Below, one piece after another: positions 3,684 to 20,855 of a DNA stretch of 27,705 nucleotides (position 1 is the stretch's first letter; each line of letters begins with the position of its first letter). Origin of the DNA: a virus (taxonomy: Duplodnaviria > Caudoviricetes); the IMG/VR virus record IMGVR_UViG_3300017754_002116, positions 1 to 27,705 of that record. One strand, written 5' to 3'. The notes beneath the pieces are model-generated. The model ran no database searches. It had not been told where the DNA came from and worked only from the letters and a program-made list of their open reading frames with translations. The position numbers and the translations under genes are program-made.

Positions 3684-5031
3684 CAGGCAGGGACGGAACT
3701 GGTTCACGCAAGTTTTGGGACGCTTCACGCGCGATCCGAAATATGTCCGGGGCAGCGAACGCCGCTGGTATCCGAATTCATCGGGCGTCGCTGTCGACGC
3801 GGACAGCGCACTGAAGACGGCGGCGGTTTGGGCGTGCGCGCGCTATCTCGCGCAGACCGTCGCGGGCCTGCCGTGGGGCGTTCGCGCGCCGCAGGGCAAG
3901 ACGGGTTCGCAGACTGTTGAAGGCGGCGTGTCCTTTATGATCGCCAGCCGCGTCAGCGACGAATGGTCTTCGTTCCAGTTTCGCGAAACGCTGACCCATT
4001 GGGCCGTGATGCGCGGCAACGGGTACGCTGAAATCGAACGCGATGGCGCTGGCCGTCCGGTCGCGCTTCATCCGCTGCATCCCGACACGGTCGACCCGAT
4101 GCGCGACGAACGCGGGCGGCTGTTCTATCGCGTGAGCGGTTCGGACGGCGGCTTCGTCGACCTGGAGGCGCGCGACGTCTTCCATCTGCGCGGCTTCGGG
4201 AACGACGTCGTCGGCGTCAACGTGATGACCTACGCGGCGCAGTCTATCGGATGGGCGCAGGCCACGGAAATCTTCGGCGCGAATTTCTTCAGCGAAGGCA
4301 TGAACCCTTCGATGATTATCTCGATGACGAAAACGCTGACGACGCCGGCGCGGGACGAACTGCGCAAGGAACTCGAAAGCGTTCACAAGGGCGCGAAGAA
4401 AGGCGGACGGATTGCGATCCTCGACGGCGGCATGAAGCCGGAACGCCTGTCGTCGACCGCCGAACAAAGTCAGTTCATCGAAACGCGCCAGCATCAAATC
4501 GAAGAAATCTGCCGCTGGTTCGGCGTCCCGCCGCACAAGGTCGCGCATCTGCTTCGCGCCACGTTCAGCAACATCGAACACCAATCGATTGAAGTCGTCG
4601 TCGACGCGATCGCGCCATGGTGCAAGCGGTTCGAAGACGAGGCGGACTTCAAGCTGTTCGGCGCGGCGAACCGGCGCGGGTTCTATACGAAGATGAACCT
4701 GAAGGCGCTGCTGAAAGGCGACATGCAGGCGCGCGCGTCCTATTACCAAATCCGCCGCAACCTCGGCACGCTGAACGCCGACGAAATCCGCGAATTCGAA
4801 GACGAGAACCCCATCGGCGGCAAGGCCGGGAAAATGTATGTGATGCAGGGGCAATACATGAGCCTCGACGCCATCGCAGCGACGTCGGACGCGGCAGTCG
4901 AGAAGGCGAAGAACCCGCCACAAGATCCAGTGAACCCGCCGCCGGGAAATCCCGACGACGAACCGCCGGAAGGCGATGACCTGGCGGCGAAGACGAAGAA
5001 ACTTCAGCAACTCATCGGGGCGGACCAATGA
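3676..5031 (+). CDS. Portal protein, HK97 family
   Basis: [57 protein letters not shown]. Start placed at ATG 3676, downstream of GGAGG. Confidence 0.96.
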
Positions 5032-5639
5032 CGGACCTTCAACAGATGCGCGAAGCCGCCAACGCGGCGGTCGATGCAGCGACAAAGGCGCTTGAACTCG
5101 CGCGCGGGCTTGTCTCGCGTATCGACGCGCTGGAAGCCCGCGAAACGCCAGCGGGCAAGGATGGCGGCATCGGCCCGAAAGGCGATCCGGGCGAGCCGGG
5201 GCGGAACGGTCTAGACGGTAAGGACGGGAAGCCCGGCATCAACGGAAAAGACGGCGCGCCGGGGGCTGATGGCCGGGACGGCGTCGACGGCAAGGACGGC
5301 GCGCCGGGGCGGGATGGCCGGGACGGCAAGAACGGCGTCGACGGCAAGCCGGGACAGGACGGCAAGGACGGCCCGCGCGGCGAAGCCGGGGCGGATGGCG
5401 CGCCCGGTCGCGACGGCGTCAACGGGAAGGACGGGAAGGACGGCGTGAACGGCAAAGACGGGAAGCCGGGCATCAACGGAAAAGACGGCAAACCGGGCCG
5501 CGACGGAGATCCGGGTGCGCCGGGGCTGGAAGATATCGAACTGACGAACTACGCACCGTCGCTAGACGGATCGGACGACTTGCGCATACTTCGCGCGCGG
5601 ATCGGGACTGATATCGTCGACTTCATCGTGAAACGGTAA
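5028..5639 (+). CDS. Collagen-like protein (N-terminal helix, Gly-X-Y domain, short C-terminal domain)
   Basis: 42 uninterrupted Gly-X-Y triplets at 5154-5531; ATGA overlap with the portal stop. Confidence 0.9.
5154..5531 (+). repeat. Gly-X-Y coding repeat with internal 33-bp near-identical duplication
   Basis: GACGGGAAGCC(C/G)GGCATCAACGGAAAAGACGGC at 5223-5255 and 5457-5489. Confidence 0.9.
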
Positions 5640-6419: not shown

Positions 6420-7859
6420 ATGAAAGTCATCGACGGTTTCGGTCTGGCGGTTGCTTCGGCGCGTCAGACTGCCACGGCGGCAGCGGCAAAGCTGTTCCGC
6501 TCGCATCTGCTGGGGGGTTCTGGTCTTCCGCTGATCCTGATGGGGCCGACGTCGGACCCGCTTCAGCGGCTTCGCGATCAGCTTCAGGAAGCGACTTCCG
6601 ACATGGAAGCCATCACGCAGGAAGCCGACGACGGCTACCGCGACCTGACGCCGGAAGAACTCGCTTCGATCACCGAACTTTCGCAGAAGTGCGACAACCT
6701 GCGGACGCAGATCGCGGCGCGCGAAACCATCGCGAACGCGGCCGGCGGCGGCGGCGGTCGCAAGACTGCGCCGGGCGGCGGCGGCGGCGACAAGCGCGTC
6801 GCGCCGACCGTGAAGGACAGCGCCCGCTGGGGCTTCAAGTCCATGGGCGAATTCGCGCTCGCCGTGCGTCAGGCTTCCATTCGTCCCGACGCCATGGACG
6901 CGCGCCTGACGAACGTCGCCACGACCTACGGAAACGAAGGCGTTGGCGCTGATGGCGGCTTCGCCGTCCCGCCGGAATTCCGCCGGGAAATCTGGACGAA
7001 GGTCATGGGCGTCGAGAACCTGTTCTCGCGCGTGACGCAGCTTGTGACTGCGAGCAACAGCCTGACCTTCCCGAAAGACGAAACGACCCCGTGGGACACG
7101 ACGAAGGGCGTTCAGGTCTTTTGGGAAAGCGAGGCGGGCCAGATCGCGCAGTCGAAGCCCGCGCTGGGGACGGAGTCCATGCGGCTGAACAAGCTGACCG
7201 GGCTTGTCCCGATCAGCGAAGAACTGTTGCAGGACGCGCCGGGCATCGAAAGCTGGCTGCGCGCGAAAGTCCCGACGAAGATGGCGGCCAAGCTGAACCG
7301 CGCCATCGTGCGCGGGACCGGCGTCGGTCAGCCGATGGGCATCCTGAACTCGGGGTCGCTCGTTTCGGTCGCGAAGGAAGGGTCGCAAGGCCCGGATACC
7401 ATCTGGTACAAGAACATCGTGAACATGTGGAGCCGCCTCGCGGGCGAGCTTCGCGGCAATTCCGTCTGGCTGGTCAATCAGGATATCGAACCGCAACTCT
7501 ACACGATGCAGTTCGCGCCGGGTTCGTCGACGCCGGTCCCGGTCTATCTTCCCGCCAACGGCGTGAGCGGTTCGCCGTTCGCGACGCTGATGGGCCGCCC
7601 GGTCATCCCGGTTCAGGCTTGCTCGACCCTTGGCGACAAGGGCGATATCATCCTGACCGACCTGTCCCAATACTTCGGACTGACGAAGGGTCAGGACATT
7701 CAGACCGACGTGTCCATGCACTTCTTCTTCGATCAGGCGCTGATGGCTTTCCGCTTCATCCTGCGCATCACGGGTCAACCGGCGTGGGGTTCGGTCATCA
7801 CCCCGGAGAACGGCGTCAACACGCTGTCCTGGGCCGTGACCCTCGACGAACGGACCTAA
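6420..7859 (+). CDS. Major capsid protein, HK97 fold with N-terminal delta-like scaffold region
   Basis: Coiled-coil N-terminal part, DGGFAVPPEF, ISEELLQDA, GTGVGQPMGIL, TLMGRPVI. ATG 6420 follows GGAAGGGG. Confidence 0.95.
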   Translation: MKVIDGFGLAVASARQTATAAAAKLFRSHLLGGSGLPLILMGPTSDPLQRLRDQLQEATSDMEAITQEADDGYRDLTPEELASITELSQKCDNLRTQIAARETIANAAGGGGGRKTAPGGGGGDKRVAPTVKDSARWGFKSMGEFALAVRQASIRPDAMDARLTNVATTYGNEGVGADGGFAVPPEFRREIWTKVMGVENLFSRVTQLVTASNSLTFPKDETTPWDTTKGVQVFWESEAGQIAQSKPALGTESMRLNKLTGLVPISEELLQDAPGIESWLRAKVPTKMAAKLNRAIVRGTGVGQPMGILNSGSLVSVAKEGSQGPDTIWYKNIVNMWSRLAGELRGNSVWLVNQDIEPQLYTMQFAPGSSTPVPVYLPANGVSGSPFATLMGRPVIPVQACSTLGDKGDIILTDLSQYFGLTKGQDIQTDVSMHFFFDQALMAFRFILRITGQPAWGSVITPENGVNTLSWAVTLDERT

Positions 7860-7943: not shown

Positions 7944-8453
7944 ATGAACCAACTTCTGACGGAAAAAGTGCAGATCGCATCGGGCTTCGTCCCGATTTCG
8001 ATGGCTGCGGGCGCGAACGCTGGCGACTGGGTCAGCCTGAAGAACTTTCTTCGCTGCGCCATCGTGTTCTTCAAGGCCGCTGGCACGGCGGGAGACGACC
8101 CGGTCATCACGCTGCTTCAGGCGACGTCTGTCGCCGGTTCGAATTCGAAGGCGCTGAACTTCACGCGCATCGACAGCAAACAGGGCGCCGCCCTGACCGC
8201 CATCGGCCAGTTCACGAAGACCGAACAGGCGGCGGGGAACACCTATTCGAACCTGACGCTGGCCGAAACGCAGGCGATCATCGTTATCGATATCAAGGCC
8301 GAAGACCTCGATATCGACAACGGCTTCGACTGCCTTCAGGCGAGCGTTGCCGACGTCGGCACGAACGCGCAAATCGGCGGGCTGCTTTACCTGCTGCATG
8401 ACCCGAAGTTCGTCGACGAGGCGGGCCTTCTGCCGTCGGCCATCGCCAACTAA
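7944..8453 (+). CDS. Putative capsid decoration / minor capsid protein
   Basis: 169 aa, beta-strand-like pattern, directly after the capsid gene and before a terminator, so likely co-expressed at high level. Function inferred from position. Confidence 0.65.
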   Translation: MNQLLTEKVQIASGFVPISMAAGANAGDWVSLKNFLRCAIVFFKAAGTAGDDPVITLLQATSVAGSNSKALNFTRIDSKQGAALTAIGQFTKTEQAAGNTYSNLTLAETQAIIVIDIKAEDLDIDNGFDCLQASVADVGTNAQIGGLLYLLHDPKFVDEAGLLPSAIAN

Positions 8454-8480
8454 GTTCGCCGGGGCGCTTGGGGCGAAGCG

Positions 8481-8520
8481 GGCGGGGATCGGTCAGGGCT
8501 GGCCGGTCCCCGTCTTTTTT
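8481..8520 (+). terminator. Intrinsic terminator after the capsid genes
   Basis: 15-bp stem with G-U pairs (8481-8495 / 8500-8514), loop GGGC, then T6. Confidence 0.8.
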
Positions 8521-8534
8521 CAGCAAAGGGAGAC

Positions 8535-8834
8535 ATGACAATGTTCGTAAAGTTCGACGTGACGAAGGTCACGAAGGAAGCAAATCCGCAGACCTTCGAA
8601 GCTGGCGAATGCTATGACATGCCAGCGGCGTCCGGCTTCCGCTGGATCAAGCGCAACGTCGCGCATGAAATCAGCGAAGCCGAATACAAGGAACACAAGG
8701 CGGCGGCCCGCTCGAAATCGAAGCGGACGAAGCCGCCCGCCGCCGAAGGCGCTGGCGCGCCCGATCCGACGAAGACCGGCGGCGCTGGCGAAGGCGCTGG
8801 CGCTGGCGGGGGCGGGGCCGGGGGAAACGGCTAG
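8535..8834 (+). CDS. Small capsid-associated protein with Lys-rich segment and Gly/Ala linker; zero-frame partner of a -1 frameshift
   Basis: RBS AAAGGGAG. FEAGECYDM...RWIKRNVAHEI resembles small post-capsid phage domains. Ends GGG GGA AAC GGC TAG. Confidence 0.8.
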   Translation: MTMFVKFDVTKVTKEANPQTFEAGECYDMPAASGFRWIKRNVAHEISEAEYKEHKAAARSKSKRTKPPAAEGAGAPDPTKTGGAGEGAGAGGGGAGGNG

Positions 8835-8904
8835 GACCGCCCGCGACCGCAATCCCCGGCCTTCCATGGGCCGGGGAGACGGCCTTCGTCGTCTGCGGCG
8901 GTCC
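8822..8904 (+). promoter_or_regulatory. Putative -1 programmed ribosomal frameshift signal
   Basis: G GGA AAC (X XXY YYZ) in the correct phase at 8822-8828; 5-nt spacer; outer stem GGACCGCC 8834-8841 / GGCGGTCC 8897-8904; inner stem TCCCCGGCC 8853-8861 / GGCCGGGGA 8869-8877. Confidence 0.8.
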
Positions 8905-9466
8905 ATCCCTGAAAGGCTTCGACCTGGCGCAGCTTCGCGGACGCGGGCGCGTGATCGCAATCAACGCGGCAGGCTATGCGGTCCCATGGGCGGACCTTCT
9001 GCTGTTCATCGATCACACTTTTTTTCAGGCTCACTCGCATATGGTCCGCGCGTTCGACGGCGCGGTCTGGACCCTGTCGCGCAAGACACATGCGGATCAC
9101 CCCGAAATTCCCCGCCTGATGATGGCAGGCGAACCGCTGCTTGGCGCTGGCGAGCATCCAATCCGCATGAGTGCGAACAGCGGACAGACCGGACTCGCCA
9201 CGGCAATCTCCCTTGGGGCGAAGCGCGTTGTTATGCTCGGCTTCGACTATAAACTCGCGCCGGACGGGGCGTCGCATAGCCATCCGCACTATGGGGGACC
9301 GAACAAGAAAGCCGTGGGCGATCACTGGCTGGATTTCATAAAGGGCTGGGGCCAACAGGCGCGCGCCGCCGGGGTCTTCGTTCTGAACGCCAGCCCGGAC
9401 AGCGCCATCGATGAATTTATGAAGTGCGCGCTAGGGACGCTGTTCGATGAACTTCAAGGAAGCTGA
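8828..9466 (+). CDS. Maf/DUF115 (MptE/CstII-like fold) glycosyltransferase-like domain, reached by -1 frameshift
   Basis: Frame reads PWAGETAFVVCGGPSL...RVIAIN...NSG...LGAKRVVMLGFD. The GGPSL motif lies upstream of the first available start (GTG 8951), and there is no ATG/GTG/TTG back to the TGA at 8666. Confidence 0.75.
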   Translation, partial: RLGPPATAIPGLPWAGETAFVVCGGPSLKGFDLAQLRGRGRVIAINAAGYAVPWADLLLFIDHTFFQAHSHMVRAFDGAVWTLSRKTHADHPEIPRLMMAGEPLLGAGEHPIRMSANSGQTGLATAISLGAKRVVMLGFDYKLAPDGASHSHPHYGGPNKKAVGDHWLDFIKGWGQQARAAGVFVLNASPDSAIDEFMKCALGTLFDELQGS

Positions 9467-10115
9467 CGGAGATCCGCTTCAACACGCGGGGACGTGGGCG
9501 GGCGAACGTGTCGTCGTCATCGCGACCGGGCCAAGCCTTCACGGCGACGACCTAGACATGGCGGCGGAACATCAGCGACGCGGGAACGTCAGGCTGATCG
9601 GCGTCAATGACGCTTACATGTTCCTTCCGAACGACTGCTTTTCGATCCTCTACGCGGCCGATCCGCCATGGTGGAAGCTGCACGACGGCGTCCCGCTGTT
9701 CCAGGCTCGCAAGATTGTTCAGAACCGCAACGGCGGGCGACAGGTCGCGAAGCAGTTCGGACTCGAATGCGTGACCTGCCGCGACGGGGAAAAGCCGTCG
9801 ACCGATCCGGCCTGGATAGCGTCGGGATGGCATTCGGGATTTCAGGCGGTCAACATCGCGGCGCTGATGGGGTCGCGCGATATCATCCTTCTAGGCTTCG
9901 ACTGCCAGAAAGGGCTGTCGGGCAAGTCGCATTATTTCGGGGAACACCCCGCAAGCATCGCGCGGGCTTCGCCCTATCCGCTGTTTGCGGCGTCGTGGGA
10001 CAAGGCCGCCCCACACTATGAAGCGGCCGGCGTGAAGATCACGAACAGCACAAGGCGCACGGCGATAAAATCGCTTCCGCGCCGTCGATTGGAAGGGGCT
10101 TTGAATGCGAACTAA
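9447..10115 (+). CDS. Second Maf/DUF115-like glycosyltransferase-like protein (paralogue of the preceding domain)
   Basis: WAGERVVVIATGPSL, LIGVNDAY, HSGFQAVNIAALMG.RDIILLGFD, SHYFG, ITNST. Confidence 0.75.
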   Translation: MNFKEADGDPLQHAGTWAGERVVVIATGPSLHGDDLDMAAEHQRRGNVRLIGVNDAYMFLPNDCFSILYAADPPWWKLHDGVPLFQARKIVQNRNGGRQVAKQFGLECVTCRDGEKPSTDPAWIASGWHSGFQAVNIAALMGSRDIILLGFDCQKGLSGKSHYFGEHPASIARASPYPLFAASWDKAAPHYEAAGVKITNSTRRTAIKSLPRRRLEGALNAN

Positions 10116-10773
10116 TCAGGACAGACCGCCGACGTTCAGCGGGAACCGCGCCAGTCAGATGACCGGCGAACTGAACGGGCTAATCCATCTGGCGCAGTAT
10201 CACGGCTGCATGTCCTACATGGAAATCGGATCGCGCCACGGCGACACGTTTCACGCCATCATGTCGGAACTTCCACCGGGCGCGAAAGGGCTGGCGCTTG
10301 ACCTGCCGGGCGGACTTTGGGGGACGGTCGACAGCCGGGCATTCCTCGAGCGTGCGATGCACTCGATAAACCAGACGGGACGCAAGGCGGCTTGCCTCAT
10401 CGGCGACAGCCAGTCCGACGACATGGTCGCGCAAGTCGACGCATGGCGGCGCGGCCATGAAATCGCGGGGCCGTTCGACCTGATCCTGATCGACGGCGAC
10501 CATCGCCTTCCGGGGGTCACGCGCGATTGGGAAAACTATTCGCCCATGGCGCGGTTCGTCGCCTTTCACGACATTGTCGGCGAAGGGCAAATCGAAAGGC
10601 GGGACGGAAACCCGGTCGAAGTCCCTATCCTGTGGCGCAGCCTGAAGGCCAAGAGCCCGGCGGCGTGCGTCGAGTGGATCGCGCCGAAGTCGACGATGGG
10701 GATCGGCGTCGTCGACGTCGAAGCCTTCTATGGGGCGACGGCGTTCGCGAAGTTTGCGGAGGCGCTGGCCTGA
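10105..10773 (+). CDS. Class I SAM-dependent methyltransferase (Methyltransf_24-like, often glycan-associated)
   Basis: YMEIGSRHG, IGDS, FDLILIDGDH, FVAFHDI. Confidence 0.85.
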   Translation: MRTNQDRPPTFSGNRASQMTGELNGLIHLAQYHGCMSYMEIGSRHGDTFHAIMSELPPGAKGLALDLPGGLWGTVDSRAFLERAMHSINQTGRKAACLIGDSQSDDMVAQVDAWRRGHEIAGPFDLILIDGDHRLPGVTRDWENYSPMARFVAFHDIVGEGQIERRDGNPVEVPILWRSLKAKSPAACVEWIAPKSTMGIGVVDVEAFYGATAFAKFAEALA

Positions 10774-11630
10774 TGGATACGATTTGCATCGTCGCCAACG
10801 TCGACGCGCCGCATCAGATCGAAGCCGCGCGGCAATTGGGCGAAGGCGTTCGCCGCCACGGTCTGCGCGCGACGACCGTCTGCGGCCAGCTATCGCTTCC
10901 GCGCGCCGACGTCTTCGCGTGCTGGGGCTGGCGCAACGGTCAGGCGCTGAAAGCCAAAACGAAGCGACCCGTCCTGGTCATCGAACGCGGATATATTGGC
11001 GATCGCATGTTATGGACGTCGCTTCATTGGGACGGCCTGAACGGACGCGGTCGCTTCTACTGTCCGCCCGATCAGGGCGACCGCTGGCGGGCCATCCGCG
11101 AAGCCTTGCCGCGCCCGGCCCTCCCGCGCCCCACGGGGCGGCGCGAGGGGCTCGCCGTCATCATGGGGCAGGTCAAAGGCGACATGTCGATTGCTGGCGT
11201 CGATATCGATGAATGGTATTTGAAGGCGGCGGCGGCGGCGCGCAGTCAGGGACTGACCCCGCTGTTCCGACCGCATCCGCTCGCGCGCCAGCGGTCGCCG
11301 ACGTCGCTTCGACTGGCGTCCGACATGATCGCGCTAGACAACCTGACGGGGACGCTGGATCGCGCGGCGGCGGTCTATGCCTACAATTCCAACAGCCTGA
11401 CGGACGCGGCGATGGCGGGCGTCCCGATCACATGCGGCGACCGTGGGGCGGTTACGTGGATGATCGGCGGGCAGGGACTGGAAGCCGCGCCGAAGCTGGA
11501 CGACAGGACCGAATGGCTTCACCGCATGGCTTGGCGGCAATGGCTTCCCAGCGAAATCGAATGCGGCGATGCTTGGGCGGCGATCAGCAACGCGAGGCAG
11601 GAAGGGAACGAATATGTCCGGCATCACTAG
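10773..11630 (+). CDS. KpsS/KpsC-like (capsule biosynthesis-type GT-B) glycosyltransferase
   Basis: VLVIERGYI, VIMGQVKGD, FRPHP, YNSNSLTDAAMAGVP follow the QxxxD, HP and NS motif order of KpsS/KpsC-like proteins. TGATG coupling. Confidence 0.7.
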   Translation: MDTICIVANVDAPHQIEAARQLGEGVRRHGLRATTVCGQLSLPRADVFACWGWRNGQALKAKTKRPVLVIERGYIGDRMLWTSLHWDGLNGRGRFYCPPDQGDRWRAIREALPRPALPRPTGRREGLAVIMGQVKGDMSIAGVDIDEWYLKAAAAARSQGLTPLFRPHPLARQRSPTSLRLASDMIALDNLTGTLDRAAAVYAYNSNSLTDAAMAGVPITCGDRGAVTWMIGGQGLEAAPKLDDRTEWLHRMAWRQWLPSEIECGDAWAAISNARQEGNEYVRHH

Positions 11631-14039: not shown

Positions 14040-14426
14040 ATGGCAGTCCCTACACGCCCCGCTTCGGCGGCGCAGTTCATCACCATCGGCGAACAGACCT
14101 ACACGCTGACCTTCAGCGTCGTCGCGATGGCCGCCCTGCAAGATCACTATGGCCTGAAGTCGCTGACCGAAGTCGGCGAAAAACTTCGCGGCATGACGAA
14201 CGCCACGCTTGAAGACATGGTCGTCATGTTCTGGGCGGCGTTGCGCCGCTACCATCGCGACCTGACGCTTGATGATGCTTGGAGCTTGGCCGACGACGCC
14301 GGGCCGCAGATGCTGGCGCAGGCGCTGATCAAGGCGGCGGCTGGCGCGACGCCGCCACCCGGCAAGGGCAAGGCGGGAGCGGCGGCAGCGGCCCGCCCTA
14401 CCACTGGACGGTCGACGAAGTCCTAG
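14040..14426 (+). CDS. Tail assembly chaperone (gpG-like)
   Basis: Between the tube and tape-measure genes; overlapped by a -1 frame ORF. Confidence 0.85.
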   Translation: MAVPTRPASAAQFITIGEQTYTLTFSVVAMAALQDHYGLKSLTEVGEKLRGMTNATLEDMVVMFWAALRRYHRDLTLDDAWSLADDAGPQMLAQALIKAAAGATPPPGKGKAGAAAAARPTTGRSTKS

Positions 14427-14725
14427 AGCTAGGTCAGACTCTAGGCTGGCGACCGTCCGACGTTTGGAACTCGACGCTTCGTGAAATCGCGAATGCCGTG
14501 CGCGCCGATGAAAAGGCGCGCAAACGCGAATTCAAGGATGCGCTTCAGATCGCTTGGCAAAATGCCAATTGGGTCCGCGCGAAGAAACAGCCGACATGGG
14601 AACGGGTTTCGCGCCAGTATCGCGTCGCGCCGCCTGACCGCTCGCCCGGCGAATTGCTCGAAATTGCGAAACAGCTTAATGCGGCTTTCGGCGGGAAGGA
14701 CTTGCGGAAGAAAAAAGGGGCGTAG
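14396..14725 (+). CDS. Tail assembly chaperone extension (gpT-like), probably a -1 frameshift fusion
   Basis: The -1 frame encodes LGWRPSDVWNSTLREI (typical G..P..FW..T.RE pattern) and runs up to the tape-measure start. The exact slip position is uncertain. Confidence 0.75.
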   Translation, partial: PYHWTVDEVLELGQTLGWRPSDVWNSTLREIANAVRADEKARKREFKDALQIAWQNANWVRAKKQPTWERVSRQYRVAPPDRSPGELLEIAKQLNAAFGGKDLRKKKGA

Positions 14726-18569: not shown

Positions 18570-20855
18570 ATGGCTGGCGACGTCATCCTTGTAACGAAGA
18601 CCATCCTCGCCCCCAGCGCCACGGGGGCGCAGGCGTATTCAATGCCGTCCGAACTAGGCGGCAAGACGCCGAAGGCGTTGCTGGTCTTCTGCGGCGGCGG
18701 CGTCAATGCCGGAAACGTGGGCGGCGGCGACTTCATCAACTTCTGTGGGGGGATGACCGTCAACGGCGGAAACCAGTCCTACAACGCGATGACGTCGGAC
18801 GACGCGGTCAACTCGACGAACACGATTTCCGAATGGGGCAGCGATGCAATCTGCACGACCGCCGACAGTGGAAACGGAAACATGCGCTGCACGGTCAGCG
18901 CATGGTCGGCAGACGGCTTCACGCTGAATTGGACGACGCTTGTCGTGGGCGCGCGGCTTATGCCCGTTGTCGTCGTCATCATCGCGGGCGACGATGCTGC
19001 GGCCTACACGGACAACGTCAGCCTCGGCACGGGGACGTCCGCTATCGATATCACCGCGCCGAACTTTCAGCCGGACCTTGTGCTGTTCCTCGGCTGTCAG
19101 ACGGCGAACGCATCATCGACCCACGGCGACGGCGCGGCCTTCGGGATCGGCGCGGCGACCCCGACGCAACAGCGTTGCATGGTATAGGGCGAGAACGACG
19201 CGGTCGCTTCCGGCGGTCAGCCCTGTTCGCAAGTCCGCGATGATTGCGCATGGATGGGCATCACGCGCACGACCGGCGCGGCGGGTTACACGGTCCAATG
19301 CGACACGTTCGACAGCCAAGGTTTTTCGCTAACCCCCAGCGCGTCGGCGACGAACCATCGTCTGTCATACATGGCCCTCGACCTGGACGGCCTCGGCGTG
19401 TCGCTGATGGACCTAGTGACGGAGACAGTGACCGGGAACAAGGCTTACACGGGCGTCGCTTTTCAACCGGCCTTCGGCCTGCTTGCCATGTCGAACATGG
19501 CGAACCTGAACACGGCTTACTTCAACCAGATCGAAGCCGTCGGGATTGTCGTCGGCGCGTTCGACAGGTTCGGAAATCAGGCAAGCCATGGGATCACCGA
19601 AGACGACACGGCTGATCCGACAAACAACAAACAGCGGACGGACGCGACGCATGTCCTGCAAGCGCCGAACAGGACTGACGTCGCCGCCACACTGGCGAAC
19701 ATTATCAGCATTGAAAGCGACGGCTTCACGCTCAATTATTCGGCGGTCAACGGTAACGCGCAACGCGGGTTTATAATCCTTGTCGAAGGCCCGCCGCCGG
19801 TCCCCGCCGCTGGCGCGCGCGTCAGCCAGCTTGCATCGCTCGCGTTGTCGGAAGTCGACGCCGACCTGCGAACCAGCCAGCTTGCCGCGCTCGCGCTGGG
19901 GGAAGTCGAAGTCGAAGTCCGGGCGAGCCAGCTAGTCGTTCTGGTCCTAGGTGACTTGGGCATCCCGACGCGCGTCAGCCAGCTTGCATTCCTGGCGCTG
20001 GTCACTAGCTCCCCGTGTCTTACCCGTCGCTGTCGCCTCTGGAAATTGACCCGTCTAGACGGAACCGTGTTCGCCTACACGGATCACGACCGCGACCTGA
20101 CCGTGGAAGGCGTGACCTATAAACAGTGCGCGTCGCTTATGAGCTCGGCAACGCAGACCGCATCCGAAGCCGACGCCGTCGGGGATACGCAACTGACGGG
20201 CATCCTGTCGGACGATGACATAACCGAGGCGGACCTGTTCGCGGGCCGCTTCGATGGCGCGACCATCGAAATCTTCGAAACGTCGTGGGATCAGACGACG
20301 GACCCGATGACGACGCGGCGACTTGCGGCCGGCATCACCGGGCCAGCCAAGCAGGGCGAAGGACGCTTCACGGTCGACGCCCTGTCCTATGGCGCGCTGA
20401 TCGCACAAAAGGCGCTGTTGCAGACTGTCACGCCGCATTGCCGGTTCGCCCTGTATGACAGCCGCTGCGGCCTGTCGCGCGCGGCCTTCCTCGAAACCGG
20501 AACCGTGACGTCCGTCCCCGCGCTGAACGCTTTCACGCAAGCGAACTTCCGTCGGTTCACGGACAGCGCACGAACCGAAAGCGGCGACTATTTCGCGATT
20601 GGAAAACTGACATGGACGACGGGTCCGAACGCGGGGCTGTCGTCGGAAGTGAAGGCGTTCGCCAGCGGCCAGTTCCTTCTGTGGGAGCCGTTGCCGTATG
20701 CGATCAGCATCGGCGATGAATACGAAGTCGCGCCGGGTTGCGACTTCCTGAAGCCGACGTGCGTTGGCAAGTTCAACAACTTCGTAAACTTCGGCGGCTT
20801 CCCCGACCTGCCCGGAACGGACGCCATCATTCGCAGCCCGGACGCCAAGCAATGA
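18570..20855 (+). CDS. Tail hub protein (DUF2163 / RcGTA g13-like) with long N-terminal extension, interrupted by an in-frame TAG at 19185-19187
   Basis: ORFs 18570..19187 and 19254..20855 share a frame. The C-terminal part has LWKLTRLDG..FAYTDHDRDL, CRFALYDSRCGL and GCD....C..KFNNFVNFGGFP. Confidence 0.85.
19818..20021 (+). repeat. Four 51-bp (17-aa) tandem repeats, RxSQL
   Basis: RVSQL, RTSQL, RASQL and RVSQL start at 19818, 19869, 19920 and 19971. Confidence 0.9.

Follow-up and report, generated by a model that had tools for sequence, protein, structure and literature searches.

Lambda gpFI is encoded after the capsid gene, its head-binding domain is reportedly C-terminal (Popovic is said to have placed it there in 2012), and we know of no enzyme fusion for this protein. 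It bridges capsid and terminase (PMC13595911). Phage transferases that glycosylate capsid proteins were described for the mycobacteriophage Che8 (Freeman 2023, cited in PMC11256854). Frameshifted structural genes are found in T3/T7 (capsid), in the Lactobacillus phage A2 (head and tail) and in the Listeria phages A118/A500, where a capsid or tail protein is extended, mostly by Ig-like domains (PMC5009743). The lambda-type G/GT genes use G_GGA_AAG, and the g-t site of the halovirus HCTV-1 is G_GGA_AAC (PMC5009743). The motif G_GG.A_AA.C has a low efficiency in E. coli, yet it is used by IS elements (PMC4066793).

The window, i.e. the whole analysed stretch of 27,705 nucleotides, is a single contig and the whole of its genome record. 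It has the layout of an HK97-fold siphophage structural operon with terminase, portal, ClpP-type protease and capsid, followed by a 169-aa gene, a 99-aa gene, three or four enzyme genes, a head-tail adaptor and a GTA-like tail (Table 1). The GTA-like tail families together with Mesorhizobium homologues point to an alphaproteobacterial host. Between portal and prohead protease, a collagen-repeat protein is encoded at 5028-5639. In the distal part, an in-frame TAG (19185-19187) separates the ORF 18570-19187 from a frame continuing to 20855, which represents a baseplate hub with a long N-terminal part; this TAG may be a nonsense change, a read-through site or an assembly error.

Table 1. Features of the head-module cassette and its surroundings, in window coordinates.
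Feature	Position	Strand	Remarks
Major capsid gene	6423-7859		
169-aa gene, next after the major capsid gene	7944-8453	+	weak likeness to Bbp16-type capsid cement proteins
Terminator-like hairpin with U run	8480-8521	+	just upstream of the small gene; z -2.3
Small gene, 99 aa, zero frame	8535-8834	+	residues 1-64 L9-N-like domain plus helix; remainder disordered Gly/Ala/Pro linker
Slippery heptamer G GGA AAC	8822-8828	+	phased X XXY YYZ; heptamer and spacer shared by locus L445
5-nt spacer	8829-8833	+	zero-frame stop TAG (8832-8834) at its end
Predicted stimulatory RNA structure, three-way junction	8834-8904	+	its 3' arm consists of the enzyme motif's Gly-Gly-Pro codons
Start-less domain, 212 codons, -1 frame	8828-9466	+	CstII/Maf/GT29-like fold (predicted); phrog_4603 (PmgO / D3 orf7 family)
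Second paralogue, stand-alone, own ATG	9447-10115	+	about 24% identical, different subfamily; phrog_4603 E 2.1e-28
SAM methyltransferase (Methyltransf_24)	10105-10773	+	29.1 bits, cut-off 26.3
285-aa protein	10773-11630	+	near clusters with PF05159 Capsule_synth in 17-18% of members

The 99-codon ORF ends with GGG GGA AAC GGC TAG, in which G GGA AAC sits three codons upstream of the zero-frame stop. In the -1 frame, which stays open over 8669-9466, no ATG, GTG or TTG occurs before GTG 8951, which is hence the first start codon past the site. A slip at the heptamer is computed to give 98 + 212 = 310 residues. The region behind the spacer folds with -49.3 kcal/mol (z -3.77; none of 200 shuffles was equally stable) into a predicted three-way junction with the outer stem GGACCGCC/GGCGGUCC and two inner hairpins, one of 9 bp with one G-U pair and a second of 7 bp; a stable structure is predicted within 5-9 nt of the heptamer (z -3.8 to -4.3). 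These results bear on most claims of the first-pass annotation, which was made from the letters alone. The reading-frame check agrees with the phasing of the heptamer, with the start-less -1 frame ahead of the enzyme motif and with a product of about 310 residues. The structure 5 nt further on was also found as proposed, except that the supposedly perfect 9-bp hairpin is, owing to its G-U pair, not strictly perfect and that the 7-bp hairpin is an addition to that description.

In-phase heptamers occur by chance as well, with 10 among the 7,602 codons of 29 window gene spans, one of which was read in the wrong frame. Strong downstream structure is present only at heptamer 8822 (z -4.2), the other nine having z values from -1.4 to +0.9. 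A contig of 590x depth equals the window over 8500-9100 with zero differences and zero gaps, so that the continuous ORF by indel, which the first-pass annotation had named as contrary to its proposal, was not seen. This contig is possibly the window's own source; it counts against an assembly slip, yet is not independent. The coverage of runs X2 and X3 lies outside the junction. At position 9429, X1 and X2 both differ from the window base, which alters a single residue towards the end of the enzyme domain. A variant of the window in a second sample has 9 of 13 differences at third positions, with 6 synonymous and 6 non-synonymous codons, which is a weak signal. Since G_GG.A_AA.C is weak in E. 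coli but used by IS elements and HCTV-1, a minor product is expected. The same phage appears to use a further signal: in the tail chaperone G gene (14040-14426), C CCU lies in phase 6 nt ahead of a strong stem (z -3.2; site 14396-14460), and the -1 frame encodes a TAC_6 domain. This is likely a G/GT frameshift pair on a tetramer, not on a heptamer, hence the host likely supports such signals. Altogether, a -1 ribosomal frameshift at G GGA AAC, and with it the fusion product, is very likely.

The start-less domain matches phrog_4603 (E 1.2e-26, profile positions 1-172 of 178), whose members include P1 PmgO, P7 HdmB and D3 orf7. Its structural model (pLDDT 88.5) matches Campylobacter CstII (E 4.9e-6, TM 0.54), Maf (TM 0.62) and GT29 sialyltransferases, with 12-17% identity. 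When the family profile was compared with CstII, the GPS, SG and G-x-D motifs were aligned (E 0.004), and the N motif as well. Fold and nucleotide-sugar motifs thus predict a member of the CstII/Maf/GT29-like class, which bears out the glycosyltransferase-like character assumed before. The domain stays below the curated cut-off of Pfam MptE-like (PF01973; 16.1 bits vs 34.6), the NCBIfam search gave no matches, and the PHROG name 'sialyltransferase' is a transferred label. All invariant family residues are kept in the enzyme frame of the window. A protein begun at GTG 8951 would lack the first core strand as well as the GGPS loop, both of which align with CstII; precisely this truncated product of 171 aa is contained in the protein collection, as had been foreseen for automated annotation. 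Among the neighbours, the 285-aa protein is likely a further sugar transferase, which should be taken as a lead only; the same protein type adjoins the family in L044, L057 and L062. In five loci of the window's enzyme subfamily (L371, L375, L377, L379 and L195) a left-handed beta-helix acyltransferase-like gene, labelled by its repeat pattern, stands between the small gene and the transferase.

For the small protein, the model reaches pLDDT 93-98 across residues 1-60, and 29 relatives of 66-134 residues were found besides itself. The fold class of residues 1-64 (L9 N-terminal domain) takes in GINS B domains, the C-terminal domain of lambda gpFI and YqbF. The match to gpFI is weak (Z 3.9), with L9 and GINS domains scoring higher; hence, head binding rests on the fold class and the gene position, and we speak of a predicted head-binding domain and regard the capsid association and the tethering put forward in the first-pass annotation as putative. 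No longer fused forms of this domain were found in 22 candidates, a weak test. Synteny with the capsid gene, present at 12 of 12 loci, was not used as a requirement. The preceding 169-aa gene has structure matches to clusters with PF21190 under the naming threshold. The hairpin between these two genes would reduce cassette expression relative to the capsid, and in the PMG1 record a terminator is annotated at the corresponding place. Judged from gene content, the slot after the small gene suggests an exchangeable glycan cassette. Another member of the window's small family, at L374 (870-878), ends with G GGA AAG GCG TGA, a highly shift-prone sequence, and has an unrelated helical ORF downstream.

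The family of D3 orf7 permits a comparison across many loci. In D3, the small gene after the capsid, orf6.5, has an in-phase C CCA AAG, immediately after which the enzyme motif starts in the -1 frame; orf7 as annotated is a truncated version. In SI1, three stops shut the -1 frame immediately before C CCU UUG, where this frame opens. Psp6 (L287) is start-less too, with U UUU UUG at the opening of its -1 frame, and no family stem was found at this site. Own starts are present in P7, JK004, PAJU2 and phiNP; the intact own-start family genes of phiNP (L276 3040-3590) and JK004 (L288 1186-1740) have been left unannotated. The D3-type set comprised the best 80 of 568 viral relatives in the part scanned, i.e. 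those nearest D3. Within these best 80, CCCAAAG is kept in 47 of 47 D3-like loci. Of the 33 divergent loci (49-59% to D3), 32 show a -1 overlap between small gene and enzyme, and in 27 of these 32 the open frame lacks a start codon. The one exception, L341, has lost the small gene, and its enzyme has an ATG. A TTG or GTG eight codons before the D3 heptamer, which occurs in 43 of 47 loci and serves as start in the PMG1 record, was rejected as start, because it follows from zero-frame Leu-Cys and is absent in 4 of 47. Two records named Tetraselmis viridis virus (L280 and L284; HQ632858 and HQ632857) have an HK97-like phage head operon that includes the frameshift cassette as well as a glycosyl transferase.

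After removal of three duplicates, 35 distinct junctions were compared, of which 32 have a tetramer or heptamer 5-7 nt upstream of a stem, the exceptions being L338, L342 and L341; the background is 118 in 1,601 codons (7.4% per codon). The slip-site Pro codons are CCU or CCC in 21 of 22 cases, vs 41% of the nearby Pro codons (hand count), which agrees with the ranking of C_CCY above C_CCR in E. coli (PMC4066793); the preceding codon specifies many different amino acids but ends with C. The 3' arm of the D3-type stem consists of Ala-Ser-Gly-Pro codons, and the arm in the window lies at the same position and is formed by the homologous Gly-Gly-Pro codons. In the stem alignment 83% of cells are paired, with 8 double changes vs 2.0 in shuffles (0 of 500). 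However, the stem was read from the same sequences, its 3' arm is constrained by the protein and the rows are related, so this covariation figure is supportive and should not be taken as a probability.

A second set was ranked by likeness to the window's enzyme and has 71 distinct junctions. It added 20 start-less loci in which a small gene overlaps the enzyme, so that this arrangement in the -1 frame is now seen in D3 plus over 50 divergent loci. Heptamers were found at 17 of the 20 start-less loci but at only 2 of 42 own-start loci, the loci of both groups not being independent; this count left out L381, L418, L427, L433, the duplicate L448 and four second paralogues. A helix search without positional prior gave motif plus stem in 9 of 20 start-less loci vs 5 of 42 controls. 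L445 has G GGA AAC, 5 nt and an 11-bp stem, and L442 has G GGA AAA at the same spacing. Moreover, small domain and enzyme are joined in frame in three distinct cases (L433, L407 and L418/L419) among 345 enzyme-bearing frames from 318 loci, and L407 is sister to a frameshifting locus in the tree. These fusions sit on metagenome contigs, therefore a single indel error is possible for each. Hence, the check recommended earlier, namely heptamers with covarying stems or natural fusions in homologues, gave a positive result in the wider family, and the claimed -1 frameshift fusion gains support from the kept layout, motif-stem spacing, stem pairing and natural fusions.

The window's own lineage needs a separate view. 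No close locus came up in viral contigs (queried with single proteins, with pairs and by aligning the small protein), in genome contigs (queried by aligning the small protein and with the enzyme pair) or in phage records (queried with the small domain). A scan for AAAC plus WxGETxF in viral contigs gave 119 loci from 16 of 64 parts, with one family locus and zero heptamer cases. A start codon in frame is present in each of the 62 viral loci that carry WxGETxF, and none of the other 79 of the best 80 metagenome loci, among those that could be placed, has the layout of small gene and -1 enzyme. L413 and L199 carry the same kind of small gene beside an enzyme with its own ATG. Homologues with an independent start and without heptamer, named in the first-pass annotation as evidence against its claim, are thus real for the closest enzyme homologues; this makes the fusion optional in the family, not absent at the window. 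One protein pair points to a relative: P0002 is 71% identical to the window enzyme and was called from inside the first motif, and P0041 is 51% identical to the small protein and ends with Gln-Gly-Lys-Pro. Each comes from one 12,498-base contig, and the two proteins, the only such pair found, probably derive from a single locus that is divided where the window is. Two candidates were discarded, namely L067 as heptamer case, where GGGAAAT is out of phase, and L200 as start-less locus, an appearance due to a one-base difference from L203. L067 and L068 have other sugar-modifying sets (GT-A-like, deacetylase-like, methyltransferase; motif-based labels) in the slot after the small gene.

Tree analysis rejected a common origin of the frameshift: a clade uniting all start-less rows fails the AU test (p 1.06e-5; 17 vs 26 rows), and a careful tree of 59 rows has 7 state changes; L372 was mis-cut in the AU-test tree and omitted from the latter. 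The window enzyme and P0002 group with eight own-start genes (100/97), and the second paralogue of the window lies on the other side. A profile of the other frameshifting partners did not find the window's small domain, and profile-profile comparison indicates a distant relation (80%, E 1.4e-5). Since the start-less lineage of the window stands apart and its small domain is missed by the profile, the family evidence applies to it by analogy. The unrooted tree is most simply explained if the frameshift arose separately here or if a domain was swapped in behind a signal that was already present. The repeated gain and loss and the fixed fusions suggest selection for attachment of the enzyme to the small domain.

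It is probable that the 8535 gene yields two proteins, the 99-residue product and a 310-residue fusion which would carry the CstII/Maf-fold transferase to the prohead by means of its predicted head-binding domain. Ribosomes would pause at 8834-8904 and, immediately ahead of the zero-frame stop, the tRNAs for Gly and Asn would move back by one base. Most ribosomes would terminate at 8832, and a few percent would continue to 310 residues; owing to this low slip rate, the plain head-binding protein would far outnumber the copies that bear an enzyme, in a fixed ratio. By analogy with gpFI (PMC13595911) and the mycobacteriophage capsid glycans (PMC11256854), the fusion may dock on proheads and begin a virion glycan that its neighbours extend and cap, to which we give slightly less than an even chance. 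The 35-residue linker could let the enzyme reach out from the docking site and start a glycan on a virion protein, the second paralogue and the capsule-synthesis-like protein could extend it, and the methyltransferase could cap it. P1 pmgO is non-essential (PMC10695390), which may be set against this reading but is as expected for a shield, not for an assembly factor. More tentative still is the general idea that capsid-addressed glycosylation is widespread and repeatedly invented among phages of Gram-negative bacteria, with a gpFI-like domain docking a CMP-sugar transferase on the prohead and the frameshift setting the ratio. The window would then be an independent invention from different domain and enzyme subfamilies with its own three-way-junction stimulator.

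The frameshift could be real and serve dosage only, with the small gene as translational lead-in and the scarce enzyme acting on a host surface polymer, a host protein or DNA. Most family members function without the small domain, P1 and jumbo phages have the enzyme away from a post-capsid gene, and no substrate is known, all of which would fit. However, the in-frame fusions retain the domain, which a pure dosage device would not need to attach, the cassette is located in the late structural operon, and the homologues of PAJU2 and Eowyn are annotated as 'structural protein', a label taken here as given. We regard a role in dosage alone as unlikely. Even less can be said for an own non-AUG start of the enzyme (ATC 8852 or ACG 8879) or reinitiation past the TAG next to a chance heptamer. 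The usual start of homologues is 7-17 residues ahead of the first Trp, where ATC 8852 also falls, and coupled own-start versions exist at L413 and L199; but both codons and any ribosome-binding site are buried in the -49 kcal/mol structure, the heptamer, 5-nt spacer and stem reproduce the family pattern, and heptamers are scarce in own-start loci (see above), which makes this explanation very improbable.

A recent indel may have broken an in-frame fusion or a stand-alone gene, leaving the enzyme frame as pseudogene or assembly error. The junction lies within a G-rich run, in-frame fusions occur in the family, and the one contig that spans the junction may be that from which the window was taken. 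Against this stand the depth of 590 without gap, the 71%-identical relative seemingly split at the same place, the intact frame with all invariant residues and, as a weak argument, the third-position differences of the second-sample variant, so that an indel is highly improbable. RNA polymerase slippage on the G5-A3 run (8820-8827) would shift the frame without the ribosome. This short purine run is present, but it is far below the 9 A/T cited for efficient slippage (PMC5009743), and the sites of the family, whose letters vary, are motifs for in-phase tRNA re-pairing, followed by a stem at the distance expected for the ribosome; we give this explanation hardly any credence.

In the literature searched, with most subscription papers outside its scope, no published description of this family's frameshift was found; the gene clusters with predicted frameshifts in PMC4066793, five of them from phages, could include the family. 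The finding accounts for the annotation of D3 orf7 and relatives as truncated or missing. It offers a testable route to virion glycosylation beyond mycobacteriophages, in the cultured phage D3, and makes dozens of natural C_CCY plus stem signals available for the study of weak bacterial frameshift motifs.

With T3/T7, A2 and A118/A500 (PMC5009743), the locus shares a short product and a rarer long one, an in-phase slippery motif and a 3' structure; in contrast to the extended capsid or tail proteins of these phages, a small accessory gene is extended here by an enzyme domain. Motif class and spacing resemble the lambda-type G/GT genes with HCTV-1 (PMC5009743) and the tetramer and heptamer signals of IS3/IS911 (PMC4066793), whereas genes and purpose differ, and the window has a second, head-module frameshift beside the likely one of its tail chaperone. 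The L9-N-like fold is shared with lambda gpFI (PDB 2LSM) and B. subtilis YqbF (2HJQ) (Foldseek probability 0.99, E 0.2; VIA Z 3.9 and 3.4), no sequence match to either being found, and the head-binding domain is N-terminal in the window, unlike the reportedly C-terminal one of gpFI. CstII (GT42), Maf, GT29 and phrog_4603 are alike in fold and in the GPS, N, SG and G-x-D motifs, at the low identity given above. Mycobacteriophage glycosylation concerns other hosts, its genes are located close to the 3' end of the genome of the cited phage, and the available sections of PMC11256854 report no frameshifted targeting domain. The window contributes a distant case, probably of independent origin, in which the heptamer is a different one, the stimulator is branched and a stop follows the site immediately. 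Beside tail chaperones and capsid/tail extensions, the head cassette would be the third common site of programmed frameshifting in tailed phages, with an enzyme as its product.
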